A stretch of DNA of 64,000 nucleotides, from NCBI GenBank assembly GCA_964016885.1, contig OZ024747.1:71362001-71426000 (forward strand). The letters run 5' to 3'. Shown here one piece after another: positions 5,119-57,310 of this stretch. The first letter of the stretch is position 1; each line of letters starts with the position of its first letter. Below the pieces are notes generated by a model. The model searched no databases. It had not been told where the DNA came from and saw only the letters and a list, made by a program, of their open reading frames with translations. The DNA comes from Eledone cirrhosa. Taxonomy: Eukaryota. Made by a program: the position numbers and the translations under genes.

Positions 5119-5120
<2 letters not shown>

Positions 5121-5214
5121 CGAATGGGGTGTGGTTTGGAACCAGATGGACCATAACGCACCCGAGTACTAAATACTTAGGGTAGTAGAGTGGGTAATAG
5201 GAAAAGTACTTTTT

Positions 5215-5864: not shown

Positions 5865-6066
5865 ACGAAGGAAATGTGGTAAGGAACCAGGTGGACCATA
5901 ACCCACCAAAGTACTCAATACTTAGGGTAGTAGAGTGGGTAATAGGAACGAGTAGAACCCCGACGGCTGAGCTCAAGCCGTTTCGACGGCTAATTCTGGA
6001 CTAAAATTTTAGTCCAGAATTAGCCGTCGAAACGGCTTGAGCTCAGCCGTCGGGGTCCTACTCGTT

Positions 6067-6071
<5 letters not shown>
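5863..6071. mobile_element. Family B fold-back element (130-bp zero-spacer palindrome plus ~79-nt tail) in (TA)n
   Basis: 5942-6006 is the reverse complement of 6007-6071 (1 mismatch), centre CTAAAA|TTTTAG; (TA)n on both sides. Confidence 0.85.
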
Positions 6072-6652: not shown

Positions 6653-6728
<76 letters not shown>

Positions 6729-6834
6729 ATAATAATAAAATTGAAGACTAAAATCCAAAGAGGGCTCGATAAGGAAAATATATATCAAATATATAAGAAC
6801 CGTAGAGCAAATATTTATTAAAATAACAGATTAA

Positions 6835-6885
6835 AGTTTAAGCAAAGAATCGCTGTTTTCACCCTTAACGGGATCTTCTGAAACT
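6835..6885 (-). ncRNA. Hammerhead-like motif (CAGAAGA core variant), 3' pLTR copy
   Basis: Mirror copy of 8802-8852 with one stem III mismatch. Confidence 0.55.
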
Positions 6886-7813
6886 AACAAAGTCAATCTG
6901 TAAACTCAGAACTGGATATTTCAAAAAACGTTGCAACCGGAGGAAGACAGGAAGACGATACTTTGGTTCGTGGTAGCGTTCGCTGGCAAAGAACGGGAAA
7001 AAACGAATAATACGTCATTAATAGGAGCGGTGAAAAACAATTACGCGCAAAGACAAAACCACGTTTATGGTATAAAAGAGGTCGAAGACTAATGTTCTCT
7101 TAGGTGGTGCATAGAGACGTTCTCTGGCAATGAACGAAAAAACGAAGATAATAAGTCATATGTGGAGCGTGGAGAACAATAGCACGCAAAGACAACACCA
7201 CGTAAATGGTATAGCTGAAGTCGTAGACTAAAATTCTAACAAGGAGACCAAATGAATCTCCGCTACAGAGTTAAGAACAAAGTAAATAAATACAATACAG
7301 AAGTAATAGGAACAAATAAATACATACACGCAAACAGATACGTACATACACAAGCATACGCAAAACCTTACCATGGGTATACAAAACTACGCACATATAA
7401 ATATGTGTGTGTGTGTATGCTTGTGTACAAATAAATAAATAATTATATAAACGTATATAAGTAAATAAATACGTATATAACAAGCGCACACGCATACCTA
7501 CATATAAATACACGAATGTTCGGAGACGTAAGTCAACTAAAACAAGAAGTACACATATACACACACCCACCATACGTACGAACCTGCACACTCACGCGGA
7601 CGCAAAACTCCCGTATACACATAGCCAAACCCTAAATACCAGAATATGTAAAAATTATACGCTATAACAGTCAAATATACGTACGAGAAGGTATACATAC
7701 CTTCACAAAACTTACGGGTAATATATACTTACCTATGCAAATACGTAAAGGAATAAACAAAACATATACTTAGCTACCACATCAAGACGTAAAATATCCA
7801 CGTATAGATCGTG

Positions 7814-8728
7814 CTATCCGTTAGGGTATAACGTGGGGCTGTAATACAGGAAAGTTTTGTGCAATTTATGTTTACAAGCCGAAATTGCCTCAGATTTTTT
7901 GTTTAAGATGTGGTCTGTGGCGTAGAGTATTTCCAGGGCCTCAGCGGCGCAGAGGTCACATGGTCTTTTATTTCCGTTATACGATCTAGCCTCAGCTAGG
8001 ATCTCCCAGTGTAACTTATATTGGGTGTGGTTGTCTTTTAGACTCCAGATATAAGCTGAAAGTGACGTCATATTCCTTCTTGGAGGGTAACGAAAAGAAT
8101 GGGTATGCATGTAAAGACACTGCTTGAAACTATTGGCGGTTAACCCTATGTAGGCCCTACGGGACGTGGGTGTTACAACCTTACATTTGTAGACAATGTT
8201 ACTAGAGAGGCATTTCCCGGATAGGGGGCAATCAGCCCGATTCCTACAATTACAGTTAGTACTACCTACAGGGTTGCACGTGTTCCTACGGCTAGGTAGT
8301 TTAGCTAAATTTGAAGCTGTGATGTTATGTGCAAGGTTAGGAGTCGTAGAGTAAGAAATTTTAATAGTATTTCTATTAAAAATGTTACTATATTTATGTG
8401 TAGGGGGAAAATGCTTCTTAATAAGGGAAAGAAAGATCTTAGCTAATGGTGTGGCCATCTCCATATTATATGGTGGGTTAAACCAACAAATGCGACGGGA
8501 TCTATTTCTTCTAGGTCTATTTTCGTACACTGTATATGCTACCTTATCTACAAATCCGCTTCGAGCAAGAGCTTCATTGTAATAAGTGGAATGGTCGTTG
8601 AAAATGCGCTCGTTGGTGGAAAGACGGGAAAGCCTCAACGAAACGTTTCTTACCAGGTTCTTGGTTATGCTGGCAGGATGGTTGGAATGCTTACTTATGT
8701 AATTAAGCGTATCATTCTGCTTTCTATA
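7814..8728 (-). pseudogene. PLE ORF C-terminus: RT thumb + Cys linker + GIY-YIG endonuclease
   Basis: Frame stays open beyond the track start: YRKQNDTLNYISKHSNHP (thumb), WFNPPY, CNCRNRADCPL, IVY..YIG, CDLC..E, LN. The Arg seen in FKLRY of the 26.6-kb copy is Cys here. Confidence 0.85.
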
Positions 8729-8801
8729 CCGTCTTCCTGTCTTCCTCCGGTTGCAACGTTTTTTGAAATATCCAGTTCTGCGTTTACAGATTGACTTTGT
8801 T

Positions 8802-8852
8802 AGTTTCAGAAGATCCCGTTAAGGGTGAAAGCAGCGATTCTTTGCTTAAACT
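8802..8852 (+). ncRNA. Hammerhead-like motif (CAGAAGA core variant), inverted pLTR copy
   Basis: AGTTT-CAGAAGA-tCCC gttaa GGGt-GAAA-GCA gcgattctt TGC-TT-AAACT: stems I, II and III all pair. Confidence 0.65.
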
Positions 8853-8868
8853 TTAATCTGTTATTTTA

Positions 8869-8917
<49 letters not shown>

Positions 8918-8922
<5 letters not shown>

Positions 8923-10697
8923 GTGAGGTTTTTTTACAAAATGAAAAATAACCGAGGTGTCCTACACGAATGAAAGTATAAAGAAAAAAGATGAAATCGA
9001 AAATGCAACTGGAGTCTTATTTTTTTTAAAATAGATATATTTATTTGGTCCCTTTACCGGTTTCGCAGTTCTTCTGCTTTTTAAAAGTAGAGTTGAGATG
9101 GAGGGTCTGTGGTTTTTCTCACATCTGGTTGGTCTTTGAATGTTACTTGTTTTATATGGAAAAAAAGTGGCTCGAAACGCCAGGTTTTTAGAGAAGTAAT
9201 TTGATTGGTTGGTCAATAAGTATAATAAATTTCGCGCCAGTTCGCGTTACAAAGGTCTTCAAACAAGGGGGGGGGTGCTCAGGTTGTTTTTTTTATATAT
9301 GAGTGTTTGTATTACTTTTTACTTTAAAAAAAGGGGCTCACGAAGGCTTTTTTTTTAAATGTAATTTGATTGGTTATAGATGAAATTATGGTTGTCACGT
9401 GAACAAGTTCATTAAATTTCACGCCCGTATTTGGGAATTTGTTTTGTAGCCTTTTAGAGAATTTTATGACAATAAAAAAACACACACAAAATATATATAT
9501 TCTCTCCTTCTTAACATACTCCCACACACACACACATAACACCCATATACACACACACACATCTCCCTCCCCCATTTCTACCAATAGAATCATCTTCCTA
9601 TACACACACACACACACAAACACACAAATAAACATACATATGTCTACTTTCTTTATTTCAATAGAAAACCTGAACTCTGACACCCCAGCGAACTAGCCAT
9701 ATTCACTGAACCAGAACAATTCTCCCATCCCATTTCTCTTGACCATTCTTTTGCTTGTCATAGAATTCTCTAAATGGCTACAAAATAAATTCCCAAATAC
9801 GGGCGCGGAACTTGTTCACGTGACAGTCATAATTTCATTCATAACCAATCAAATTGCATTTATTTTTTAAAATCTTCGGGAGCCACTTTTTTTATTCTCA
9901 TAAAATTATGTAAAAGGCTACAAAATAAATTCCCAAATACGAGGGTGAAATGTTAATGAACTTGTTCACGTGACAGTCATAATTTCATTTATAACCAATC
10001 AAATTGCATTTTTTTTAAAAAGTCTTCGGGAGCCACTTTTTTTATTGTCATAAAATTATGTAAAAGGCTACAAAATAAATTCCCAAATACGGGGGTGAAA
10101 TTTTAATGAACTTGTTCACGTGACAGTCATAATTTCATTTATAACCAATCAAATTACATTTAAAAATAAAAAAAAATAAAAAGCCTTCGTGAGCCACTGT
10201 TTTTATTGTCATAGAATTCTCTAAAAGGCTACAAAACAAATTCCCAAATACGGGCGTGAAATTTAATGAACTTGTTCACGTGACAACCATAATTTCATTT
10301 ATAACCAATCAAATTACATTTTTTTTTAAAAAGCCTTCGTGAGCCCCTTTTTTTAAGTAAAAAGTAATTCAAACACTCATATATGAAATAACAACCTGAG
10401 TCCCCCCCCCCCCCCTGTTTGAAGAACTTTGTAACGCGAACTGGCGCGAAATTTATTATACTTATTGACCAACCAATCAAATAACTTCTCTAAAAACCTG
10501 GCGTTTCGAGCCACTTTTTTTCCATATCAAACAAGTAACATTCAAAGACCAACCAGATGTGAGAAAAAACAAAGACCCTCCATCTCAACTCTACTTTTGA
10601 AAAGCAGAAGAACTGCGAAACCGGTAAAGGAACCAAATATATAAATATATTTTTTTTTAAATAAGACTCCAGTTGCATTTCGATTTCATCTTTTTTT

Positions 10698-10842: not shown

Positions 10843-10948
10843 TATAGATAACGAGGAATCAGTAATGCATCAAATCACAATTGACGAAGAAACATGTAAT
10901 ATGTTAATAAATGGTGGTTTGATGCATTACTGATTCCTCGTTATCTAT
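10843..10948. repeat. Short inverted repeat (~35-bp arms)
   Basis: ATAGATAACGAGGAATCAGTAATGCATCAAA ... TTTGATGCATTACTGATTCCTCGTTATCTAT. Confidence 0.8.
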
Positions 10949-10959
10949 CTCTATATATA

Positions 10960-11052
10960 TGAGAGCGTACCGACATTTTGGTACCCTTGAAATATAGATA
11001 ATAAAATAAATATGGTTTTATAAATATAGTTTCCATTTATTAATATCATTGA
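10960..11052 (+). mobile_element. Family A PLE 3' end fragment starting within the hammerhead
   Basis: TGAGAGCGTACC..GGTACCCTTGAAATATAGATAATAAAATAAATATGG..CCATTTATTAATATC matches 44496-44585. Confidence 0.75.
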
Positions 11053-11060
11053 TATATATA

Positions 11061-11381
<321 letters not shown>

Positions 11382-23929: not shown

Positions 23930-24114
23930 GCATGTGTATATATATATGTATATATGTATGTATATATATATATATATATACATGTAAAGTTATATTTAAA
24001 ATTGTTGGGTTACAACTAGTAAATATTTATAACTGATATAAAAGCACTCGACAAATACTTGGAGTATATTTACAATATTAAATAAATGGAAAACTATATT
24101 TATAAAACCATATT

Positions 24115-24180
24115 TATTTCATTATATATATTTCGGGGATATCATATTAACAATATGCTATGCCTTCATCAGACAAAATA
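24115..24180 (-). ncRNA. Minimal type I hammerhead ribozyme (family A)
   Basis: Mirror of 28985-29050. Confidence 0.75.
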
Positions 24181-24543
24181 CAATATAAACAGTTTTATAG
24201 ATAAATATATTCGACATACCGTAATAAACATCAACTTCATTTGAAGAGGTTCACTCTAGCAGTGAAAATACAGAGAGAAAGAAAGAGAGAGAGAAAAGAG
24301 GGAAATAAGAAAGAAAGAAAGACGAAACGAAGAAAAGGAAGAAAAAGAAGAAAAAGAAGAAATGCATGGGACAAAATAGAGAGATGGAAAAATAGATAAA
24401 GCGAAGAGCTTCATGTAAAGAGACCGAAAGAGATATATATATATATATAGAGAGAGGAAATAGAGATAGATACATATATAAATATAGATATAGAAAAATT
24501 AGGTAGTGGGAGGTCATTTTGAGTAAGTGTATCAATGATGCAT

Positions 24544-24578
<35 letters not shown>

Positions 24579-25667
24579 GCTCAAGTATTAATGTAAGGGA
24601 GATATAGAGAGATATAGAGAGATATAGAGAGAGAAAAATTTAAAAATAGCCAGACATATTCGAGGCGTAGAAAACCCTATGTTTTAATGTATTAGTATTT
24701 ATAAAACTTACACTATATTGTAAATATCAGTATTCCTGAATGAAACAAGTATTCACAATGCGTGAAAATTCATTATCTTATGTTTAGTTTTTTAAAAAAT
24801 TCATATGTCTATGTGAATCCAACTGATTCACTCCGCAAATTCAAAGTTACCGGAAAACATTCTCAATGTGGTATAAACATTTGAGCGTATTATTATTCTT
24901 GCGATTACTCTACAAGATTATCTATCAAGCAGAAATAGAGAGCAGATTTCAATATACTAATCGAAAATATATATTATATTATAAGCAGAGATAACAATAA
25001 TAATGATAATAAGTAAAAATATATAAAAATATAAAAATATAGAATAGAAAACTAAAAACGAATATTACGAAAGAATATTACATAATAAAAATATTGCATA
25101 TTAAAAATACTATGTTTTAAAATTATTACGTATTAAAACTTTACATATAAAAATATTAAAAATAAAAATAAAATAAAATAAAAAATAAAAAATAAAAATA
25201 TAAAAATATTATAGAATACTACAATACTAAAAGAATAAAAATAAAAATAAAAATAAAAATAAAAATAAAAATAAAAATAAAAATAAAAAATAAACCACAA
25301 AGAACAACCCTTCAAGGTTAATTGACAATATATTGCCAAGTTCACTACAAGACAAAGCCAAAAATTATCTATCAAATCACATCTAGCAAGGAATATCGCA
25401 AAAAAAAAAAAGGTTATGATGTCCAATAATGTCTACATATGTTCCTATATTTAATATATAAGTTTATCAAGTGTAAGGTTAATTCATAAAATTTGGAGCA
25501 TCGGCTTTTAGGGTAGCTTAATTTTTCATGAGGAATGTTTAGATAAAAATAAAAATAAAAATAAAATAAATACAATAAAATAAACAGTAAAAAGAGGGAA
25601 TCAAAGATTTAGGAATCAAAAGATTTATCGGCTAGTTCTCATATAAATATAAATCAAACTAAATATA

Positions 25668-26576
25668 CTACATTTTAAATTTAAATTTATATTTAAACGT
25701 TGAGTTTAATCTATGTTTGCAACAACTGAATAAATTTGTCCGTAGGTTAAGGGAATTTTTAGATTTTAGTATAAAGAATATCTCCTCTGCGCAGAGGTCA
25801 CATGTCTCAGAGGATGAATTAAAAGGAATCCCTCTTGAGACTATATTCCAAGCCGTCGAATATCTAACGTTATCTAGCTTAAGTTGCCAGAGTACACCTG
25901 ATAGTGCCGTTGAAGATTTTTTATTTGGATCTGTGAAAGAATTCTTGTGGTTATTATAGCGAAGTTTAAATTCCGTCGATGTGGAACCGACGTAGTTAAA
26001 AGAATTAGAGTCAGTATTAACATTACAATTGTATACTATATTTTTAACTAAGCAGTTGTTATTTAACGGACATTTAGATCTATCTCTACAGTTGCATTTG
26101 TTAACTTGTATATTATTTATGCTATTATCAGTAGTTTTTAAGTTCCTATTATTTATTCTATTAATATTTTGTGCTAAATTTTTGGTGGATGAATAGGTTA
26201 ATTTAATTGTATGCCTATTGAAGATTGAGTGGTACCTATGTGTTCTAGGGAAGCGATTATCAAGAGCTTTGAAAAATAATTTAGCGATGTGGGTTTTAAT
26301 GTTTAGTGAGAAAGGGGGGGCAAACCAAATTATGTTCCTAGTTCTATTTCTTTTTTGTCCTTTGGAATTATTGTAATGCTTTCTATTATAGTTGTTAATG
26401 TTGTTGCCATAATTAAAAAAGTTGTTACTTTGTTTAGTTTGTTTATCATTATCTATGTACACAATCTTATCAGCATACCCTGCCCTAGCTAGTGCATCAT
26501 TATAGTATTGGGCCTTTTCGTCAAAAATCTTTCTATTCGACGAGATCCTAGAGATACGCTTTTGGACTGAGTTTAC
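25668..26576 (-). CDS. PLE ORF C-terminus (end of RT thumb + GIY-YIG endonuclease), left arm, 5'-truncated
   Basis: Mirror of 26581-27489; open up to the palindrome centre. Confidence 0.85.
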   Translation of the reverse strand, partial: VNSVQKRISRISSNRKIFDEKAQYYNDALARAGYADKIVYIDNDKQTKQSNNFFNYGNNINNYNRKHYNNSKGQKRNRTRNIIWFAPPFSLNIKTHIAKLFFKALDNRFPRTHRYHSIFNRHTIKLTYSSTKNLAQNINRINNRNLKTTDNSINNIQVNKCNCRDRSKCPLNNNCLVKNIVYNCNVNTDSNSFNYVGSTSTEFKLRYNNHKNSFTDPNKKSSTALSGVLWQLKLDNVRYSTAWNIVSRGIPFNSSSETCDLCAEEIFFILKSKNSLNLRTNLFSCCKHRLNSTFKYKFKFKM

Positions 26577-26580
26577 TATA

Positions 26581-27489
26581 GTAAACTCAGTCCAAAAGCG
26601 TATCTCTAGGATCTCGTCGAATAGAAAGATTTTTGACGAAAAGGCCCAATACTATAATGATGCACTAGCTAGGGCAGGGTATGCTGATAAGATTGTGTAC
26701 ATAGATAATGATAAACAAACTAAACAAAGTAACAACTTTTTTAATTATGGCAACAACATTAACAACTATAATAGAAAGCATTACAATAATTCCAAAGGAC
26801 AAAAAAGAAATAGAACTAGGAACATAATTTGGTTTGCCCCCCCTTTCTCACTAAACATTAAAACCCACATCGCTAAATTATTTTTCAAAGCTCTTGATAA
26901 TCGCTTCCCTAGAACACATAGGTACCACTCAATCTTCAATAGGCATACAATTAAATTAACCTATTCATCCACCAAAAATTTAGCACAAAATATTAATAGA
27001 ATAAATAATAGGAACTTAAAAACTACTGATAATAGCATAAATAATATACAAGTTAACAAATGCAACTGTAGAGATAGATCTAAATGTCCGTTAAATAACA
27101 ACTGCTTAGTTAAAAATATAGTATACAATTGTAATGTTAATACTGACTCTAATTCTTTTAACTACGTCGGTTCCACATCGACGGAATTTAAACTTCGCTA
27201 TAATAACCACAAGAATTCTTTCACAGATCCAAATAAAAAATCTTCAACGGCACTATCAGGTGTACTCTGGCAACTTAAGCTAGATAACGTTAGATATTCG
27301 ACGGCTTGGAATATAGTCTCAAGAGGGATTCCTTTTAATTCATCCTCTGAGACATGTGACCTCTGCGCAGAGGAGATATTCTTTATACTAAAATCTAAAA
27401 ATTCCCTTAACCTACGGACAAATTTATTCAGTTGTTGCAAACATAGATTAAACTCAACGTTTAAATATAAATTTAAATTTAAAATGTAG
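26581..27489 (+). CDS. PLE ORF C-terminus (end of RT thumb + GIY-YIG endonuclease), right arm, 5'-truncated
   Basis: Open from the centre: VNSVQKRISRISSNRKIFDEKAQYYNDAL, WFAPPFS, CNCRDRSKCPL, IVY..YVG, FKLRYNNH, CDLCAEE, LN; collinear with ORF 7814-8728. Confidence 0.85.
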   Translation, partial: VNSVQKRISRISSNRKIFDEKAQYYNDALARAGYADKIVYIDNDKQTKQSNNFFNYGNNINNYNRKHYNNSKGQKRNRTRNIIWFAPPFSLNIKTHIAKLFFKALDNRFPRTHRYHSIFNRHTIKLTYSSTKNLAQNINRINNRNLKTTDNSINNIQVNKCNCRDRSKCPLNNNCLVKNIVYNCNVNTDSNSFNYVGSTSTEFKLRYNNHKNSFTDPNKKSSTALSGVLWQLKLDNVRYSTAWNIVSRGIPFNSSSETCDLCAEEIFFILKSKNSLNLRTNLFSCCKHRLNSTFKYKFKFKM

Positions 27490-28586
27490 TATATTTAGTT
27501 TGATTTATATTTATATGAGAACTAGCCGATAAATCTTTTGATTCCTAAATCTTTGATTCCCTCTTTTTACTGTTTATTTTATTGTATTTATTTTATTTTT
27601 ATTTTTATTTTTATCTAAACATTCCTCATGAAAAATTAAGCTACCCTAAAAGCCGATGCTCCAAATTTTATGAATTAACCTTACACTTGATAAACTTATA
27701 TATTAAATATAGGAACATATGTAGACATTATTGGACATCATAACCTTTTTTTTGCGATATTCCTTGCTAGATGTGATTTGATAGATAATTTTTGGCTTTG
27801 TCTTGTAGTGAACTTGGCAATATATTGTCAATTAACCTTGAAGGGTTGTTCTTTGTGGTTTATTTTTTATTTTTATTTTTATTTTTATTTTTATTTTTAT
27901 TTTTATTTTTATTTTTATTTTTATTTTTATTCTTTTAGTATTGTAGTATTCTATAATATTTTTATATTTTTATTTTTTATTTTTTATTTTATTTTATTTT
28001 TATTTTTAATATTTTTATATGTAAAGTTTTAATACGTAATAATTTTAAAACATAGTATTTTTAATATGCAATATTTTTATTATGTAATATTCTTTCGTAA
28101 TATTCGTTTTTAGTTTTCTATTCTATATTTTTATATTTTTATATATTTTTACTTATTATCATTATTATTGTTATCTCTGCTTATAATATAATATATATTT
28201 TCGATTAGTATATTGAAATCTGCTCTCTATTTCTGCTTGATAGATAATCTTGTAGAGTAATCGCAAGAATAATAATACGCTCAAATGTTTATACCACATT
28301 GAGAATGTTTTCCGGTAACTTTGAATTTGCGGAGTGAATCAGTTGGATTCACATAGACATATGAATTTTTTAAAAAACTAAACATAAGATAATGAATTTT
28401 CACGCATTGTGAATACTTGTTTCATTCAGGAATACTGATATTTACAATATAGTGTAAGTTTTATAAATACTAATACATTAAAACATAGGGTTTTCTACGC
28501 CTCGAATATGTCTGGCTATTTTTAAATTTTTCTCTCTCTATATCTCTCTATATCTCTCTATATCTCCCTTACATTAATACTTGAGC

Positions 28587-28621
<35 letters not shown>

Positions 28622-28984
28622 ATGCATCATTGATACACTTACTCAAAATGACCTCCCACTACCTAATTTTTCTATATCTATATTTATATATGTATCTATC
28701 TCTATTTCCTCTCTCTATATATATATATATATCTCTTTCGGTCTCTTTACATGAAGCTCTTCGCTTTATCTATTTTTCCATCTCTCTATTTTGTCCCATG
28801 CATTTCTTCTTTTTCTTCTTTTTCTTCCTTTTCTTCGTTTCGTCTTTCTTTCTTTCTTATTTCCCTCTTTTCTCTCTCTCTTTCTTTCTCTCTGTATTTT
28901 CACTGCTAGAGTGAACCTCTTCAAATGAAGTTGATGTTTATTACGGTATGTCGAATATATTTATCTATAAAACTGTTTATATTG

Positions 28985-29050
28985 TATTTTGTCTGATGAA
29001 GGCATAGCATATTGTTAATATGATATCCCCGAAATATATATAATGAAATA
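28985..29050 (+). ncRNA. Minimal type I hammerhead ribozyme (family A)
   Basis: TATTTTGT-CTGATGA-aGG..CATATT gtt AATATG..CCc-GAAA-TATATA-TA-ATGAAATA; palindromic loop III. Confidence 0.75.
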
Positions 29051-29088
29051 AATATGGTTTTATAAATATAGTTTTCCATTTATTTAAT

Positions 29089-29145
<57 letters not shown>

Positions 29146-29157
29146 GTATATATATAT

Positions 29158-29208
29158 AGAATTAGCCGTCGAAACGGCTTGAGCTCAGCTGTCGGGGTCT
29201 TACTGGTT

Positions 29209-29212
<4 letters not shown>
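29158..29212 (+). mobile_element. Family B short-arm fragment in (TA)n
   Basis: AGAATTAGCCGTCGAAACGGCTTGAGCTCAGCTGTCGGGGTCTTACTGGTTCCTA matches 6016-6070. Confidence 0.8.
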
Positions 29213-43390: not shown

Positions 43391-44207
43391 TAGGTTTACT
43401 TTAAATTATTCAATATATGTGTATGTATGCATGTGGGTGTATGTGCGTGTATGTGTGTGTGTATGTGCGTGTATGTGTGTGTGTATGTGCGTGCCTGTGT
43501 GTGCGAGTGCATGTTTATGCGTGCACGTATTTGCTTGAGAGTGCATGTATGTCCATGTGTGTATGTATCTGCCTACGTATACATAAAGCTTTTAAATGTT
43601 TGTTGTTTCTTCCAGCTTTTCTCCAACCGTCTTCTCAGAATTATCCAGCATATGTTATTACTGCACATTTTATTTCCAATTGAATTTGTTCATTGTTTGT
43701 CAAAAATCCCCCTGCATGTAGTATACTGTTATTTTTTATCCCTACATCGAACATAATCGTCTTACATTATCAGTTGTTTTCTTTCAACAGCTAAATATAC
43801 TTATATAAACTCATTGTAATCTTTTTTGTTGACATTTGTAAGGAGCTTCTGTGAGTCTATAGCCTTGTTCTCATATTATTCGTATATCTTATACACTGGG
43901 TCTTTGTCAAGCTCCACCTTTTCTATATAAACTAGGCCCTTGGCCAAACTGTCAACATTCAGTGCTTAGCTGGATGGGTGTAAGCAATTGTAGATTTATT
44001 GTGTTTCTTTAACATTGCGTTTGGAGAGTCTTTTTTTTTTTTTCTCTTTTTTCTTTTTCATTGAAATAATTAATTGACGTAGGAATGTGTTTTTATGCTG
44101 GAAATCTGTGGATACCATTACAACACCCATTAATTCTCATCTCTATGATCCCTACTATTTCAAATTCCTCTACCTCTCTACCTCTCTCATCTCTCTCTCT
44201 CTCTCTT

Positions 44208-44265
<58 letters not shown>

Positions 44266-44353
44266 TCTCTTTCTCTATCTCTCTCTATCGCTCTGTCTTT
44301 CTATCTCTCTCATCTCTATTAATAAATGGAAACTATATTTATAAAACCATATT

Positions 44354-44414
44354 TATTCTATTATATATATTTCAAGGGTACCAAAACTTTGTTACGCTCT
44401 CATCAGATAAAATA
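44354..44414 (-). ncRNA. Minimal type I hammerhead ribozyme
   Basis: Mirror of 44484-44544 with one extra stem II mismatch. Confidence 0.75.
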
Positions 44415-44483
44415 CAAAGCTTGTTTTATAAATATTGACATATCTCATTCCTGGGTATGTCACTGTTTATAAAACAAACTTTG

Positions 44484-44544
44484 TATTTTATCTGATGAGA
44501 GCGTACCAAAGTTTTGGTACCCTTGAAATATATATAATAGAATA
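44484..44544 (+). ncRNA. Minimal type I hammerhead ribozyme
   Basis: TATTTTAT-CTGATGA-GAGcGTACC aaagtttt GGTACcCTT-GAAA-TATATA-TA-ATAGAATA. Confidence 0.8.
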
Positions 44545-44677
44545 AATATCGTTTTATAAATATAGTTCCCATTTATTAATATCATTGATATTATACTCCA
44601 GAAAAGCTGTCGAGTGTTTCGAATCTGTTATAAATATATATATTTGTTGAATTACCAACAAATTAAATATCCCTTTG

Positions 44678-44719
<42 letters not shown>

Positions 44720-44838
44720 TTAACGTAAAAAACGGTTAGTAGATAGGGCTGAAATAACAAAGGAAAAGAAATAAGTATAGTAAGAAAGCTATACCAGAAG
44801 ACAGATACATAGACAGATATATATATATATATATATAT

Positions 44839-47549: not shown

Positions 47550-47790
47550 ATCGCATACACCCAAATATAGAAACTGCATGACTTAAAAACGTTTGCCCTA
47601 AATCCTCGAGCAGAAATGCTTATATATGTATAAACACCCCACTTTCGTTTTTTCTATCTAACTAGATCTATCTTTATCTATCCATCTGCCAGTTTATTTA
47701 TCTATCTGTCTATCTATCTATCTATCTGTCTATCTATCTATCTGTCTATCTATCTATCTGTCTATCTAGCTAACTATCTGTCTATCTATC

Positions 47791-50700
47791 TCCAGAAATG
47801 CTCATGGTTGGCTATTCAGACCACAAGTTGGTGACCTGCATGGTCAACCTTGATAGAACGCATAGACAGGGCCCCGGTTACTGGAAGCTCAACTTGTCCT
47901 TGCCGGCAAGTAGAGCCTACAGGAATCGGATTAGTACGTTAGTTAAGGAACGGTTGACTGGAGCGATCGTCAACAGCAGGTGGTGGGTATCTCTAAAGAG
48001 AGAGATTAGAATAGTCTCGATTGAATTTAGTAAGGTTCTAGCTGCGGATAGGAATAGGAAGGAAAGGGAGCTAATAGATAGAGTAGAAGAGGCAATTAGA
48101 AGCGGCGACGTGGCCAGAGTGCTAGCGTCGAGAACGGCTTTGAGCCAGTTTTTCGACGCGAAGCACGAAGGCTGCGTTGTCCGAAGTAAAATACGTGCTC
48201 TAGGGAACGAGGGGGCCAAAGCTGTTAGCTGGGCCCGCGTGACAGAGGCCAACAGTGGAACTAAATCCACCATCCGGTCTTTGCGAGACCTGGATGGACG
48301 GGCGATTCTTGAGCCTAAGCAGATGTGTGAGGCCTTTCAAAGGCACTTTGCCCGACTGTTCGGGAGGGGCGGGGAGCCGGTTGGAAACGTGGACTTCGGT
48401 CCATACCTCGACGGCCTGCCGCGCCTCTCGGACAGGGAGGCGAAGTCTTGCGAGGAGCCGATTTCGGCCGCTGAGATAGAGGACGTGCTGGGCCAATGCG
48501 GCAAACGCAAATCCCCGGGTCTCGATGGTCTTCCTTACGAATTATATCTAGCTATGCCGGACTTGTTCCCCGATCTCCTCGAGGCGGTCTACTGCAACTG
48601 GCAACAGAACGGGAGAATTCCCTGTACTGTGACCAAGGGCGTAGTCACGCTAGTGAGGAAGGACGAGAACAAAGGGGACGAAATAAGTAACTTCAGGCCC
48701 ATAACTCTGCTAAATACAGAGTTACAGATTTTGGCCAAGGTGCTAGCAAAGAGGTTGGCGCTTGTCGTGGGCAACCTGGTGGGAGATGCGCAGACATGCG
48801 CTATCCCGTCCAGGTCCATCCATGACAACCTCCACCTCATGCGATACATCATAGAGAGGGTTGGGAACGAACCCGGCTTTGGTGGGGCTCTGATCAACTT
48901 GGATCAATCTAAGGCGTTCGATAGGGTCGACCATGGTTACCTGAATGCGGTGCTAGCGGCGGCAGGCTTCGGACCCGTTTTCAGGGGCTGGATCACTGCT
49001 ATGCACAGCAGCCGCATCTGCTCTAGGGTCAAGGTGAACGGCTACCTCTCGGAGCCGTTCAAAATCGCGCGGTCCATCCGACAAGGGTGCCCTCTCTCCT
49101 CCCTTCTGTATGTGTTGACTCTCGAGCCACTACTGCGGAAGTTGGAGTTGTTGCAGGGCATCCCTTTGGAACCGGGATTGCGGAAAGCGGTGTCGGCCTA
49201 CGCCGATGATGTGACAGTAATGGTGTCGACGGCCTCCGAAATCGAGGCGGTCGGCACCTTACTGGAGGAGTACGAAAAGTTCACAGGGGCTAAGCTGAAC
49301 CGGGACAAGTCGATCGGTTTGCAACTCGGCACGTGGAGGGGCAGACCGATGCCCTCCGATGGCGTCGTCGGACGCTGGACGGAGGGCCCGGTGAAGTTGC
49401 TCGGGGTCTGGTTCGGACCGGACCTCCAGGTGGAGAAAAACTGGGCGGAGGTTACGAACAGGGTGTTTGCACTGACCCAGAAGTGGGCCAGTTGCAAACT
49501 ATCCCTGAAAGGTCGGGCGGAGGTGGCGAACACTTATATAGCGTCCGTCATCTACTACCGCCTGACCGTAGTGCCCTGCCCAAGGGAAACCCTCACCAAG
49601 ATGGAGCGCGCGCTCTTCCAATTCCTTTGGAAGGGGCGGGCTCCTATGGTGAGGAGATCCATCTGCTGTCAACACCCTTCGAAAGGAGGGCTGGGGATGC
49701 CGTGGCTAATGATGCGTAAACACGCATTAAGGCTACGGCACCTCTACGTATTCCTCACCGGACAACCGGTGTGGGCCTCGTTTGTGAGACGAACCTTTCC
49801 CAGACTCGTCTCACTCACCGAGCTGCAATCCTGGGTCAAGCAAAGACCGAGAAAACTGGGCGCCTGGCACACTGAGTGTGCCCAGGCGCTCACCGCCCTC
49901 TGGCAGGCGGATCCGGTTATCAGTGGAGACTCCACCGCAACATTCTATAGAGGGCTGGTACGCAGCAGGTGCGACGACGCCCTCGGAGAAGCCCTAGACA
50001 TGGAGGAGGACGAACTGGCCAGCCTGTTCGGTAGGACATTCAGCCCGGGACCTATGGACAACTTCCAGAAGTCCCTGGCCTGGCAGTGCTACCGAGGGGC
50101 TTTACCCGTTCGAGAAAGGCTCTACAGACACGGGCGCCCGGGTAGGGACCCCGCCAAAAAGATCTGTCCCAGATGCGTGTGCGACGAGGAAACCGTTGCA
50201 CACGCATTGGTACACTGCTCGGGCGTAGCCGATCTGTGGGGCTATGTCGAACAACTGCTGTCAAGGGTGGGACCGATCCGGTTGACCACCGAGTCTATTG
50301 TAATGATCAAGCCGCCTCCCCCCTTCAAAGATGAAGCAGAGGTGGTGTTTCTGTGCGTAATAGCCATGGCGAAAGAGGTTGTATGGTGGACGCGTCTGAA
50401 AGGACTGAGGTCAGGCACCTTTCTCTCTGGCCAACAACTGGTCCGTTTCTTCCGATATCATTTCGGAAGAAGGATCAGGATGGAGAGAGAGGTGCTGCAC
50501 CCCAGTCGTTTTTATGAAAGGTGGGTGAAAGTGGCGAGAATGGCCCGTGTGAATGGGCCTTCTCTTTACATAAGCCTGTAGGTGGAAAAGAGGAAGGAAC
50601 GAGGGAGCACCCCCTCTCTGTGCTCCTGAGGAAAAGGGTTGCACACTTTTTTCGGGGGTGTGTGCGACCCCCCAAGGCGCCTCCTCTCTATTGAGGATTT

Positions 50701-51265: not shown

Positions 51266-51620
51266 TGATATTAAATAAATGGAAGCTATATTTATAAAAC
51301 CATATTTATTTTATTATATATATTTCAAGGGCAACCAAGACAACATTGGTACGCTTTCATCAGATAAACTACAAAGTTTGTTTTATAAATAGAGACATAC
51401 CCATGAAAATCATACCTTATCGGTTGGAAATTCACTGGATAGTGGAGATATATTAGGGATTATTCAAACTCAATGATATTAAATATTCAATGATATTAAA
51501 TAAATATTATATATTTGTTTAATATCATTGAATATTTACTCCAGTAAACTGTTGAGTGCTCTAAATCAGTTATAAACATTTATATTTGTCGGACATCCAA
51601 CAAATTAAATACCACTTCCA

Positions 51621-51729: not shown

Positions 51730-51799
<70 letters not shown>

Positions 51800-51802
<3 letters not shown>

Positions 51803-52078
51803 AATATTTCCGTGGAAAAGGTAAAGGAAAGAAGAGTATTCTATGTATAACAGAACTATCTAATTATGTAATAAACAACACAATATAATTATTCCATCAC
51901 TCAAGGTTTCACGAAGTCAGACTATTCCAACAGAGACGGCTGAAGTCGTTCATCAGATAGAAATCTTTAATTAAATGGAATAATTATATTTTGTTGTTTA
52001 TTACATAATTAAAAAGCTCTGTGCTATACATAGAGCACTCTCCTTTCCTTTATCTTTTGCACGGAAATACTTAACATA
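51800..52078. mobile_element. Diverged fold-back element with ~98-bp arms and a decayed hammerhead (51892-51962, minus strand)
   Basis: 51800-51897 is inverted at 51975-52075; TTCTAT-CTGATGA-ACGA..TCGT-GAAA-C..G-TG-ATGGAA (GUG triplet, probably inactive). Confidence 0.7.
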
Positions 52079-52137: not shown

Positions 52138-52580
52138 TGCAGTGGTTATATTTAATTTGTTGGGATTCAACAAGCTTAAAAATGTTTATAACTGATAAAA
52201 AGCACTCAACAGTTTAGTGGAGTAAATACACAATATATTAATAAATGGAAACTATATTTATAAAACCATATTTATTTCATTATATATATTTCAAGGGCAA
52301 CTAAGGCAAGTTATGGTGCGCTTTCATCAGATAAAATACAGATTTGTTTTATAAATAAATATTGACATACCCGGAAAAAAAGACAACCTTAACGGTTGGA
52401 GCTTCCAGGACTATACAGGAAGCTCCAACCGTTAAGGTTGTCTTTTTTCCGGGTATGTCAAATTTATTTATAAAACAAATCTGTATTTCATCTGATGAAA
52501 GCGCACCATAACTTGCCTTGGTTGCCCTTGAAATATATATAATAAAATAAATATGGTTTTATAAATATAGTTTCCATTTA

Positions 52581-52587
<7 letters not shown>
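52138..52587. mobile_element. Family A mini fold-back element with hammerheads at 52273-52338 (-) and 52484-52549 (+)
   Basis: 52236-52406 is inverted at 52418-52587, 11-nt spacer; ~95-nt tail on the left; (TA)n flanks. Confidence 0.9.
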
Positions 52588-53055: not shown

Positions 53056-53234
53056 ATAAATACATAATCGGAGAAAGCTAAAAGCGATACCCCGGCCAAA
53101 TTCCAAATCACTCAACAAACATTAGGGAATACCTGAGTATATTCCCAATTAAACGTTTGGGTGCTAACTATATTGTATTGTGTGTATAATTGGCTGTATT
53201 ATTTCATATGAGTTATATCAATATATATATATAT

Positions 53235-53626
53235 ATACGATATTAAACAAATGGAAACTATATTTATAAAACCATATTTATTTCATTATACATATTTCGG
53301 GGATACCATATTAAAAATATGGCATGCCTTCTTCAGATAAAATACAATATATAAACAGTTTTATAAATAATTTTGACGTACCATAAATATTGATCAACTT
53401 TTACGTAAGAAGTTGGTTTGGTAGTATTTGTATTTTATCTGAAGAAGGCATGCCATATTTTTAATATGGTATCCCCGAAATATGTATAATGAAATAAATA
53501 TGGTTTTATAAATATAGTTTCCATTTGTTTAATATCGTATATCTACTCCAAAACTTGTTGAGTGCTTTATATCAGTTATAAAATATTTACTTGTTGTAAC
53601 CCAACAATTTTAAATAAAACTTTTGC
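53235..53626. mobile_element. Family A mini fold-back element with hammerheads at 53279-53344 (-) and 53431-53496 (+)
   Basis: 53235-53347 is inverted at 53428-53541; CTGAAGA-aGGcATGCCATATT ttt AATATGGTATcCCc-GAAA-TATGTA-TA; ~85-nt tail on the right. Confidence 0.9.
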
Positions 53627-53740
53627 ATATATATATATATATAGTGGTGGAACACTGGAAGGTAATATCCGTAGTGGTAGAGCACTCAGTCCAAGGGACG
53701 AGTTAGGTAGCAGTGGCTACACAACAGTTCGTTCACCATA

Positions 53741-53780
53741 CCGAGAACAATTGTTTCACCTTCGCGGATCTTCAGCTCGG
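53741..53780 (-). ncRNA. Minimal type I hammerhead ribozyme
   Basis: CCGAG-CTGAAGA-tCC gcgaa GGt-GAAA-CAATTG-TT-CTCGG; palindromic loop III. Confidence 0.8.
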
Positions 53781-53965
53781 GATGTGTATGGCTATAGGAA
53801 CAGGAAGAAGGACAACCGTACGAATGCGCATGCGCAGAAACTCGGTCATTTCACACAGGCAATACTAGACTGCGTGCGGGGGTGTAAGGGAGATAACTGC
53901 GAAAGTCCGGAAAGTTTTTTGGTTGAAAATAAAATTAAAAAATTAAAAATAAAATTACAAAGAAT

Positions 53966-54462
53966 CAGTCCGGAGCCTTGTAGTTATGCAATAGATGTTT
54001 GCTGACGTGTGGACAACGTGTGAAAAATTCACTCTCGTGTTTAGGCAATCACTATTGCGTAATCTCTTTAGGATAGTTATTTGTTCGTCAATACATAAGC
54101 CACACGTCAGATTTCTCCTTGCGTATGGCTTGGACTTAGTGATGGCTTTCCATTGAATGGAGCACCCTATACTTGAGTCCTTGAGGGACCATACGTGGCT
54201 CGCGAGTTTCGTGGATGAACGTCTGTCCGGGTATCTGAAGGTAGACTGGTGGTTCAGGAAATGCTCCTTGAATCGGCCCTCCGCCATCCTCACATAGGAT
54301 TTGACCTCCTGTGGTTCGTTTGGTCGGTTGGAAGTGACCACAGCTTCATAGATTACAGCTGGTGTGTTGCATTGTTGTCGAAGGGGGCAAGCTTCGGGCT
54401 TACGGCAAGAGCACCCTGGTGGCGTGTTGCTCCTAGGGCTGCTGGTGATGTGGGTCTTATGT
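53966..54462 (-). pseudogene. PLE GIY-YIG endonuclease fragment
   Basis: CSCRKPEACPL, VIY..YVR (YVG decayed), FKEHF, HVWSLK, CGLCIDE, CLN; 1-nt frameshift relative to the inverted copy (CLNTRSELFTRCPH). Confidence 0.8.
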
Positions 54463-54777
54463 ATTGATGAACGAATAACTATCCTAAAGAGATTACGCAA
54501 TAGTGATTGCCTAAACACGAGAAGTGAATTGTTCACACGTTGTCCACACGTCACCAAACATCTATTGCATAACTACAAGGCTCCGGATTGATTCTTTGTA
54601 ATTTAATTTAACATTTTTTTTTTTTTTTTTTTTAAACCCCAAAACTTTCCGGACTTTCGCAGTTATCTCCCTTATACCCCCGCGCACGCAGTCTAGTATT
54701 GTCTGTGTGAAGTGACCGAGTTTCTGCGCATGCGCGTTCGTACGGTTGTCCTTCCTGTTCCTATAACCATACACATC

Positions 54778-54817
54778 CCGAGCTGAAGATCCGCGAAGGT
54801 GAAACAATTGTTTTCGG
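54778..54817 (+). ncRNA. Minimal type I hammerhead ribozyme
   Basis: CCGAG-CTGAAGA-tCC gcgaa GGt-GAAA-CAATTG-TT-TTCGG. Confidence 0.8.
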
Positions 54818-54847
54818 TATGGTGAACTAACTGTTGTGTAACCACTT

Positions 54848-54913
<66 letters not shown>

Positions 54914-55441: not shown

Positions 55442-57310
55442 GCATATGTATATGGGTGTGTGCACGTATATATATATATATATATGAATATATATGTATG
55501 TAAAAGGTAAACAGAAATAAGAACACAATCGGTACAGTATATGGAAATACTGGCACTAAACACCTGTCCATACGCCATGTGGTGGCATCTACATTCGCAC
55601 ATGCACTCATATACGTCAGATGGAATTATGTATTTTCATACTAATTATGTAGCGCTGCAGTGCAATAGTGTATGCAATACTATACATAACTCTACCATTC
55701 CATCTGTCTGGAATACCATTCTTGATAACCTACATCCGGCTCCATCTTGGTCCGCCTCATTTTCTATATTCGAAACTTCAATTCTGTTTAAACAGCTCCA
55801 TGTCATCATATGTATTATCATCACATCAAATGAATTATTTACTTTCTTTCTTATTTTGTTACATTGACAGGATATGTTGTGCGTGGAAACAAATAATTAA
55901 GTGTATATTCATGTGTGCAAAAGTGTGAATGTGAGTAAAAGTGTGTATGTGTGTGTGTGTGTGTGTGTGCGTGTGTTTGTGCCTGTGTGTGTGTGTGTTT
56001 GAATACCCACAAATGCACACAGATACCACGAAGAACACCTTCACACAGTAGACAACATAAGGACCGATTTAAGCTGCTAGATGTAGCAGTCAGATACCAT
56101 TAAATGACACACACGGCCAAGTATCTTTAACCACAGGCTTGGCAAGTAAAATTTGCTAGGTGGAAACTGACCAGATGTCGTAGTATTTCACACACACACG
56201 CACGCACGCACGTACACACACACACACACACACACACCACACACATAACGACTGATTCGACCTGCTAGAGATAATAGACAGTCCGCGTGCGTGGGGGGGG
56301 GGTCAGGTCGCTCGCGAGTGCAATATCATGGTCGGTTCGTCAGTGAGTAAACTGGCAACCCCACCAGGCCTGCTTAGTTGAGGAGGGTGATTTTTTGACA
56401 CCCTACGTGAAGGGGCGGAGGAACTCAATCGATTCAATGGATAGGTGTGATGGTCAACACAAGAGGATTTTATAGTTACTTTAGTGTAAACTTATGTCAG
56501 TATCATAAGCTGTGTTCACGAGAACGATATATTTTGAAATGTTTTAAATATTATATCAATATTGAGAATATCTCTAAAATGGCTGGAAATGACACAACAG
56601 GATATGTATATTACTAATGGATTATAGACAAGACACATTTTTCTTCGTTTTATGAACTTAAAAATGCCTTGTATAAATTATTCACTGGCAAGAAAAGGTC
56701 CATCATCTGGATATTCTAATATAATGACTTCATATAACAACCGTTCCTTGAATATAAGAGAAAAATGCAGTGTCAACTTGATACAGCAATAGTGTTGAAG
56801 GTTAATAACCTAAGCTGTCAAAGAGACAACACACCGTTGAGGCCATTTTGATAGTTAGTATGGACATAAAAAGCAGATTATCTTCGATAAGAAGGTTTGA
56901 AACATATCAGTAAAGCTAAAAATATATGGTTCCACTCGACAGGTTTAACTTAGAATGAAACTAACAAACTCAAAAATTAATTTTTGAGTTTGTTAGTTTC
57001 CTAACAGTATTGTTTCTTCCTTTAGTAAAGCAGTTGAGTGCGAGAAAATTAATTAAGTTACGTGTTGACAAAAAGTAATATAATCAATTCAAACACTAGT
57101 ATATATTTTATGCCACGGCGAAGAACAAAAGTCCAACGTTTCAGACGCTTGTCCTCTTTTTAAGAAAAAGGAATTCAGGGCTTACCACGATACTGCAAAT
57201 TTACAAAGAAGGGTGCGTTACATATCTCTTCTTCTTCACGACATAAAACATTTTCCATTGTTTGAACTATTTGTATTGTTTCTTTCTTTAACTTGCTGTT
57301 TCAGTATAGA

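Follow-up and report, generated by a model that had tools for sequence, protein, structure and literature searches.

Does a short stretch of non-coding DNA with a hammerhead ribozyme motif on each strand propagate as an element in its own right, or is it debris left by a larger one? The question is raised by a ~363-bp unit without an open reading frame (ORF) at positions 44317–44680 of the window, the term used here for the whole 64-kb stretch of DNA that was analysed. The original prediction offered two options, truncated insertions or a non-autonomous retrozyme-like class with ribozymes in both polarities; the first stood, whereas the second is not supported, given different centre junctions in all five two-armed copies of the window and a trough in sequencing depth at the centre of the unit. 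If true, a unit-propagating reading would amount to a new class of non-autonomous element. We favour the reading of the unit as a whole as a truncated insertion of a Penelope-like element (PLE), with a probability of roughly 0.88. Debris of this type is worth recognising, since it can be mistaken for a MITE, for the precursor of a miRNA or for an ambisense ribozyme RNA.

Two PLE 3′ ends joined head to head

Within the unit, hereafter u1, positions 44317–44442 pair with 44456–44581 with six mismatches in 126 bp. The remaining ~95 bp on the right have no partner and occur on one side only, with (TA)n at their end, and the left flank is (CT)n-rich. The paired arms of the predicted "mini-palindrome" were thus present, but the palindrome is not a pure one on account of its one-sided tail. 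In this layout, u1 consists of two PLE 3′ ends placed head to head (Table 1). It is likely the scar of one severely 5′-truncated Hydra-clade insertion at a TA microsatellite, and the hammerhead on each strand is therefore likely a by-product of a 3′ end that was copied twice.

Table 1 Features of u1 and of related copies in the window. Negative numbers are inner arm ends.
Feature	Position	Strand	Remarks
u1, tail-less inverted arm	44317–44448	−	PLE 3′ end that reaches from the fixed short end back to 41 nt ahead of the hammerhead core
u1, type I minimal hammerhead	44354–44414	−	Cleavage predicted between 44362 and 44361; the 44392 change weakens stem II
u1, centre junction	44443–44455		Arms joined head to head near 44448, with inner ends at −41 and −44 from the core
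u1, tail-bearing arm	44448–44581	+	PLE 3′ end
u1, type I minimal hammerhead	44484–44544	+	Helix III palindrome 44528–44535; predicted cleavage between 44536 and 44537
Parts of the + hammerhead, first half	Stem I 44484–44491; core CTGATGA 44492–44498; stem II 44499–44524; GAAA 44525–44528	+	
Parts of the + hammerhead, second half	Helix III 44528–44535; stem I 3′ strand 44537–44544	+	Palindromic helix III ATATATAT; predicted cleavage after A44536
u1, one-sided tail	44582–44680	+	~95 bp, (TA)n at end; loose contig end into TA repeats at 44675
u2	52145–52587		Tail left; arms cut at −76 and −80; hammerheads 52330 (−) and 52492 (+)
u3, second subfamily	53230–53623		Tail right; the left arm reaches −79 and the right arm is shorter; hammerheads 53336 (−) and 53439 (+)
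u4	51268–51617		Hammerhead on − only (51363); right arm is tail alone; short duplicated sequence at the junction
u5	10959–11060	+	Single arm, 5′-truncated inside the hammerhead core, reaching the short end
Long copy, 5.1 kb	23986–29092		Near-perfect palindrome of 2 × ~2.5 kb; tail left; hammerheads 24172 (−) and 28993 (+)
5′-truncated PLE ORF, 302 aa	26581–27489	+	End of RT region, CxCX5C linker, GIY-YIG-type endonuclease, CxxC and CxH
Mirror ORF of the long copy	25668–26576	−	Second arm's copy of 26581–27489

Hammerhead motifs and their decay

Both minimal hammerheads that had been predicted, at 44354–44414 on the minus strand and at 44484–44544 on the plus strand, were recovered at exactly these positions by a custom descriptor and by folding. 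As RNA, the plus-strand motif has a stem I of 8 bp followed by CUGAUGA; its stem II contains a C-C mismatch and leads into GAAA, the cleavage triplet is AUA, and helix III is the 8-nt palindrome AUAUAUAU. Hammerheads cleave themselves after an NUH triplet, which in the u1 family is AUA. A second 8-bp helix (44468–44475 with 44551–44558), located beyond an internal loop, extends stem I and was invariant in all seven sequences compared. The type I descriptor yielded ten matches in the 64-kb window, eight in the u1 family and two in a second PLE family, and none in any of 40 block-shuffled windows. The Rfam profile check that had been suggested did not recover the motifs: no hammerhead was found at the gathering score in the entire window, nor at E values up to 10 in 44200–44750, where the 16 sub-threshold matches were mostly to miRNA models on the hairpin. 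A miRNA gene at u1 was rejected because these matches, at up to 62 bits, lie far below the gathering scores and are due to the hairpin. The assignment to PLE-type minimal hammerheads with a palindromic helix III is supported.

We also examined whether stem II variants keep pairing, as originally claimed. Among seven related sequences, 4 of the 11 stem II pairs were altered on both sides (between subfamilies), which bears the claim out; the statistical signal is weak, with a covariation score of 0.182 versus 0.144 ± 0.019 that was reached by 9 of 500 shuffles of these few, related sequences. Decay of the ribozyme is visible in two units. In the minus-strand hammerhead of u1, stem II carries a change at position 44392 (stem II region, −2.6 versus −9.3 kcal/mol); the pairing letter was found there in 538 of 666 reads of RAD run X11, so that u1 differs from most reads of the family. 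In u2, stem I of the plus-strand hammerhead at 52492 is broken and falls below the descriptor's 5-bp rule for this stem.

Closing of helix III in the monomer is predicted to cost 3.5 kcal/mol (−6.8 versus −10.3), and thus the ribozyme of the parent element would likely need a dimer or the help of a protein; the self-duplex of the helix III 8-mer is predicted at −3.2 kcal/mol. Dimer cleavage of hammerheads was reportedly described by Lunse et al., and Koyama et al. are said to have dealt with shrimp PLEs. Low activity has been reported for minimal hammerhead motifs of such type, and palindromic helices III are described in shrimp, fly and rotifer PLEs (PMC4209133).

A transcript of either polarity had been expected to contain one sense ribozyme together with its antisense mask. 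Predicted folds of u1–u3 RNA from both strands agree, with an unpaired fraction of 0.0 for the sense core in all six. Given that the antisense arm is transcribed first and that the sense core is predicted to be fully paired, read-through RNA would be a double-stranded hairpin without a working ribozyme. Such hairpins, predicted at −181 to −276 kcal/mol, raise the possibility that the host keeps the palindromes as sources of hairpin RNA (endo-siRNA) against the element, and small RNAs from Penelope copies have been reported in Adineta (PMC3846280). However, the arms are drifting apart and no sign of selection or of transcription of the locus was obtained, and we regard retention for this purpose as highly improbable; an endo-siRNA role could instead be a side effect of a truncated insertion.

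Copies of the family within the window

The window is AT-rich and filled with microsatellites, with a GC content of 0.21–0.57 per 2 kb, and has the character of animal genomic DNA. A repeat search of the whole window was swamped by these microsatellites, and BLAST of three units against the masked 64-kb window was used instead, which identified six copies of the u1 family, namely u1–u5 and a 5.1-kb palindrome. Recurrences predicted near 52138–52587 and 53235–53626 are real, with boundaries at 52145–52587 (u2) and 53230–53623 (u3). The statement that the same design recurs is correct for these two; three further members of the family, which the prediction did not include, depart from it: 51268–51617, with a hammerhead on one strand, 10959–11060, a single arm cut inside the core, and 23986–29092, which bears an ORF and spans 5.1 kb.

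When all arms of the family were placed in one orientation, they had the same 3′ end with two stop points, a short end about 45–55 nt past the cleavage site and a long end ~80–100 nt beyond. Every two-armed copy combined one short with one long end (5/5), and each of the five had a tail of ~80–100 bp on one side only. TA runs were present on at least one side of all six copies, and no target-site duplication was readable in their microsatellite flanks. The tails folded no better than shuffled sequences in four of five copies.

The inner arm ends, in turn, form a continuum of lengths with one layout, from tail only to −2414. The right arm of u3 ends at about −14 to −33 and the left arm of u4 at about −98 or further, the sequence upstream of u4 aligning with the 3′ UTR of the long copy up to −98; both arms of the long copy end at −2414, meeting at 26578/26579 with no spacer. 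In three of the five two-armed copies (u1, u2 and the long copy), the two arm ends lie within 0–4 nt of each other. The five copies (u1–u4 and the long copy) have five different centre junctions. Truncation at the ribozyme cleavage site was seen neither among the contig joints listed nor in the u1-family copies of the window. A DNA-transposon MITE was rejected on account of the one-sided tail, the variable centre and the link to an ORF for a PLE-type endonuclease.

In the ribozyme region, identity was 97–100% between the arms of one unit and 78–93% across units (83–85% for the u1 arms against the long copy). Arms are thus alike within a unit and less so across units, indicating that each pair of arms derives from one template. 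We considered whether the palindromes are artefacts of assembly or of read fold-back, as could be suspected from the long copy, which is 99.7–99.8% symmetric without a spacer, and from the 16 contig pieces listed (of 17,059), none of which spans the whole of u1. Yet the arms of u1 differ at 6 of 126 bp and those of u2 by three bases and two gaps in 174, the tails are one-sided, the two flanks of each unit differ, and the tail-less end is present in independent runs; we regard an artefact as highly improbable. The near-identical arms and missing spacer of the long copy reflect either a very young insertion or arms that were evened out in assembly.

The parent element

The ORF of the long copy matches the C-terminal part of seven proteins of 534–715 aa with 34–39% identity, and 7,612 representative matches were obtained at E values up to 0.001. 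In all five full-length homologs that were aligned (five of the seven), RWK, DKT and YRDD lie upstream of the matched part; the RT core and the RWK/DKT part have been truncated away in the copy in the window. What is left of the protein contains the Hydra-type motifs C161-x-C163-x5-C169, C259-x-x-C262, E265, N277 and a C-K-H ending at H288. The CxCX5C motif precedes an IVY...YVG core, the CxxC, E, N and CxH follow it, and there is no Cys pair within the GIY-YIG core. Pfam GIY-YIG (PF01541) matched 16 of 84 aligned sequences, a set made up of the query and 83 of the 150 homologs listed, picked for short length; the query ORF itself gave no match. Searches of Pfam and NCBIfam returned nothing useful for three ORF pieces of the window or for the seven long homologs, and PDB sequence searches returned nothing significant.

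The marks published for the Hydra clade are a CxCX5C linker, CxxC and CxH around a conserved E and N, RWK and DKT, (TA)n targets and canonical hammerheads (PMC8557442). Judged by its family's ORF motifs against this description, u1 is likely a remnant of a Hydra-clade PLE. The 3′ UTR of the long copy measures ~1.5 kb (27490–28990). Its ORF piece also has an asparagine-rich stretch before the linker that recalls the N-rich inserts of Adineta PLEs.

Sequencing runs and the spread of the unit

Four runs out of the 13 listed were aligned to 44310–44688 at 80% likeness: two sets of contigs from one sample and two sets of RAD reads. The runs left aside include six with shares of 0.05–0.15 and one with a share of 0.23. 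The family was abundant, with 8,698 and 8,250 contigs and, in the RAD sets, 27,364 reads (of 12.5 million) and 30,538 reads (of 12.8 million), although the best run contained 0.54 of 39 sampled words. RAD depth was 996 and 891 reads at 44420 and 685 and 790 at 44465, against 34 and 30 at the centre of u1 (44446), where 21 and 12 of the reads had another letter; the 13 and 18 reads with the letter of u1 could be true junction reads or ragged ends. A peak of RAD depth at 44323–44387 likely marks a restriction site in u3-type stem II. RAD reads are biased by restriction sites, contigs drop variants, and the runs may come from other individuals.

Contigs ran off u1 at 44442 (38 and 40) and at 44448 (45). 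The run-off consensus at 44448 matches the sequence upstream of u4, which indicates that most copies continue into a longer element. Loose contig ends at 44317 (98 and 76) led into AT-rich flanks with an agreement of 0.53–0.57, and those at 44675 (28 contigs) led into TA repeats; these ends mark two 3′ end points with varied flanks. Among the joints listed (15 of 29), those that skip the centre had differing coordinates, with one contig each per run and depths of 5–28, and there was one strand switch at 60; most centre skips listed had unknown letters between their sides, which were 20–31 letters long. Together, the runs argue against the junction of u1, the one to which they were aligned, as part of a multi-copy unit. 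A conserved 25-nt pattern was absent from the metagenome and viral contigs searched, which thus yielded no additional loci with flanks.

These data bear on the possibility that the palindromes constitute a non-autonomous mini-element of retrozyme or MITE type, with ribozymes in both polarities, that PLE enzymes copy whole. In favour of this, both strands of each unit retain a PLE 3′ end, a 10-kb stretch contains three short units that are similar in length, RAD reads of the family are very numerous, and pLTRs alone can mobilise intervening sequence (PMC3846280). Uniqueness of the centre junctions had been named as the test of unit propagation, and its outcome was adverse: no junction is common to any two of the five two-armed copies in the window, and RAD depth has a trough at the centre of u1. 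Moreover, with one ribozyme per strand no monomer is excisable, the antisense arm is transcribed first with predicted full masking of the core, damaging changes in stems I and II are found in u1 and u2, and u4 and u5 lack a second ribozyme. We consider such a mini-element very unlikely. The same degree of doubt applies to the proposal that a subset of the mini-palindromes forms an ambisense, retro-mobilised hairpin class that Hydra-clade enzymes copy whole from either strand, in a manner unlike that of tandem retrozymes.

In runs X11 and X12, aligned to 44317–44591, 87 and 77 reads with the same start join the sense short end, a short TA run and the antisense short end of another copy; they represent another genomic locus, at which two copies have inserted tail to tail.

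A proposed route of integration

We propose that a truncated insertion such as u1 would arise as follows. The endonuclease of the element would nick both target strands, and each nicked 3′ end would serve as primer for reverse transcription of a single element RNA, starting at the long (tail) end in one case and at the internal short end in the other. Each cDNA would extend in the direction of the RNA's 5′ end and terminate prematurely, in many cases at the template position where the other one stops, and the two would be joined at the centre. The product would be an antisense arm, a junction, a sense arm and a one-sided tail, which is the layout observed. The inserted copy would then be inert and decay, its read-through RNA folding into a long hairpin in which the one sense ribozyme is silenced. 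The ribozyme of the full-length element would act like those of other PLEs, probably by dimerising via its palindromic helix III or with the help of a protein.

In vitro, a PLE protein nicks and extends both strands of AT-rich target DNA, and the PLE RT has two start sites bounding the genomic tail, with hammerhead cleavage being dispensable (PMC11167929). An inverted, 5′-truncated copy with a one-sided tail is furthermore the typical layout of PLEs (PMC8557442). The arm ends that lie within 0–4 nt of each other in three of five copies, and likewise in the palindromes at 5868–6068 and 11069–11244, suggest one template with a broken 5′ end.

Twin priming is the step that we infer, and copying of a folded-back cDNA or self-priming of an antisense RNA would give the same layout. 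In that variant, the first cDNA would snap back at the truncation point and copy itself, or an antisense transcript would prime itself. Palindromes at inverted PLE junctions are known in Adineta, for which self-priming on an antisense template has been proposed (PMC3846280); the closeness of the arm ends in three of five copies fits it, as do the centres of u3 and u4, where there is a small hairpin or a duplication. By itself, however, folding back leaves unexplained the fixed internal end of the tail-less arm (44317–44324 in the runs), which matches the second RT start site (PMC11167929), and the strongly unequal arms of u4, 53640–54850 and 6725–8872 need an extra step. We regard the fold-back variant as possible and give it about a third of the probability assigned to truncated insertion, with which it shares both the element and the dead-end status.

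How PLEs complete integration is named as unresolved (PMC8557442, PMC11167929), and for Poseidon PAc the steps yielding the inverted copy were not reconstituted in the published experiments (PMC11167929). Arm ends within 4 nt of each other in three of five copies bear on this problem. The family is a natural data set in this regard, being abundant and having arms from near-identical to ~5% divergence, and models of how PLEs complete insertion could be tested on the arm-end offsets of thousands of its insertions.

Comparison with known systems

The opposite-strand layout of hammerheads has already been published, and u1 belongs to a known type of PLE debris. Among the closest counterparts are elements of the Hydra clade (Craig et al. 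2021, PMC8557442) such as Penelope-13_HM, a 5′-truncated inverted copy of which has the same hammerhead on both strands (Files S1/S2). The clade is like the u1 family in its CxCX5C linker, in CxxC and CxH around E and N and in its (TA)n targets. Common to both, too, is a type I hammerhead at the 3′ end in which stem II is flanked by one additional base on either side and helix III is short and palindromic (PMC8557442). The u1 family departs from the Hydra-clade description in its ~1.5-kb 3′ UTR, in its ~80–100-bp tail, in a stem I with a further 8-bp helix and in having many copies cut down to the last 130–270 bp. The longer tail (published one-sided PLE tails measure 30–40 bp), the long 3′ UTR and the extended stem I set the family apart from published kin.

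In Schistosoma mansoni, opposite-strand minimal hammerheads of Cercyon PLEs ~100–700 bp apart have been read as truncated PLEs (Cervera and de la Pena 2014, PMC4209133). Cercyon differs from the u1 family in clade and host, and the parts of that report drawn on here contain no analysis of junctions. Poseidon PAc of Anolis (Frangieh et al. 2024, PMC11167929) resembles the u1 family in its AT-rich targets, its two 3′ end points bounding the tail and a hammerhead near the 3′ end; in contrast to the u1 family, its tail is 30–40 bp and its hammerhead overlaps the start of the ORF.

Non-LTR retrozymes, in turn, are like u1 short, AT-rich and non-coding, with a PLE-related type I hammerhead (PMC7229834; bioRxiv 10.64898/2026.07.22.740005). 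They are head-to-tail tandems with at least two same-strand ribozymes, from which linear and circular monomers are released (same sources), whereas in u1 the arms meet head to head and each strand has a single ribozyme, a same-strand pair being absent. Neither tandem same-strand hammerheads nor a unit of fixed length, given five junctions in the window, were found in the u1 family. A unit-propagating head-to-head hammerhead element was not encountered in the titles and abstract openings of the literature searched, which took in a minority of the subscription papers.

Other elements in the window

The head-to-head arrangement with a one-sided tail in (TA)n is not confined to the u1 family and recurs in at least two other ORF-bearing families in the window. 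A second PLE family, at 53640–54850, has its tail on the left, unequal arms and, at 53775 (−) and 54783 (+), compact hammerheads whose palindrome is CAAUUG; on its minus strand is an ORF piece with CSCX5C, whose Cys linker is related to that of 26581–27489. The third family, at 6725–8872, has a 2-kb arm and a 146-bp inverted arm, with further pieces at 459–614 and 56957–57000. It contains a 334-codon ORF piece (7814–8818) that is 41% identical to 26581–27489, and its hammerhead-like core reads CAGAAGA on both arms. The piece at 56957–57000, 44 bp long and perfectly palindromic, looks by eye like the 3′ region of this third family.

GC-richer palindromes with a one-sided tail in (TA)n are found at 5868–6068 and 11069–11244, with pieces at 5119–5203 and 29158–29210; the hammerhead core is absent from them, and the two palindromes are assigned to PLEs by anatomy only. 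A microsatellite palindrome at 51798–52076, with arms at 51798–51897 and 51975–52076, has a single hammerhead-like core between them (51956, −), in which helix III is imperfect and a G occupies the cleavage position. The inner end of its inverted arm falls on the base immediately following the predicted cleavage site, and this one example might reflect the cutting of a template by its own ribozyme.

At 8984–10696, inverted arms of ~500 bp (93% complementary) surround several tandem units of ~160 bp and adjoin (TA)n, possibly as a foldback element. A small palindrome with a non-matching centre lies at 10844–10948, in the TA tract directly before u5. Finally, a GC-rich open frame of 935 codons at 47774–50581 is of LINE type (RVT_1, E = 2.5e-25; zf-RVT) and apparently 5′-truncated.
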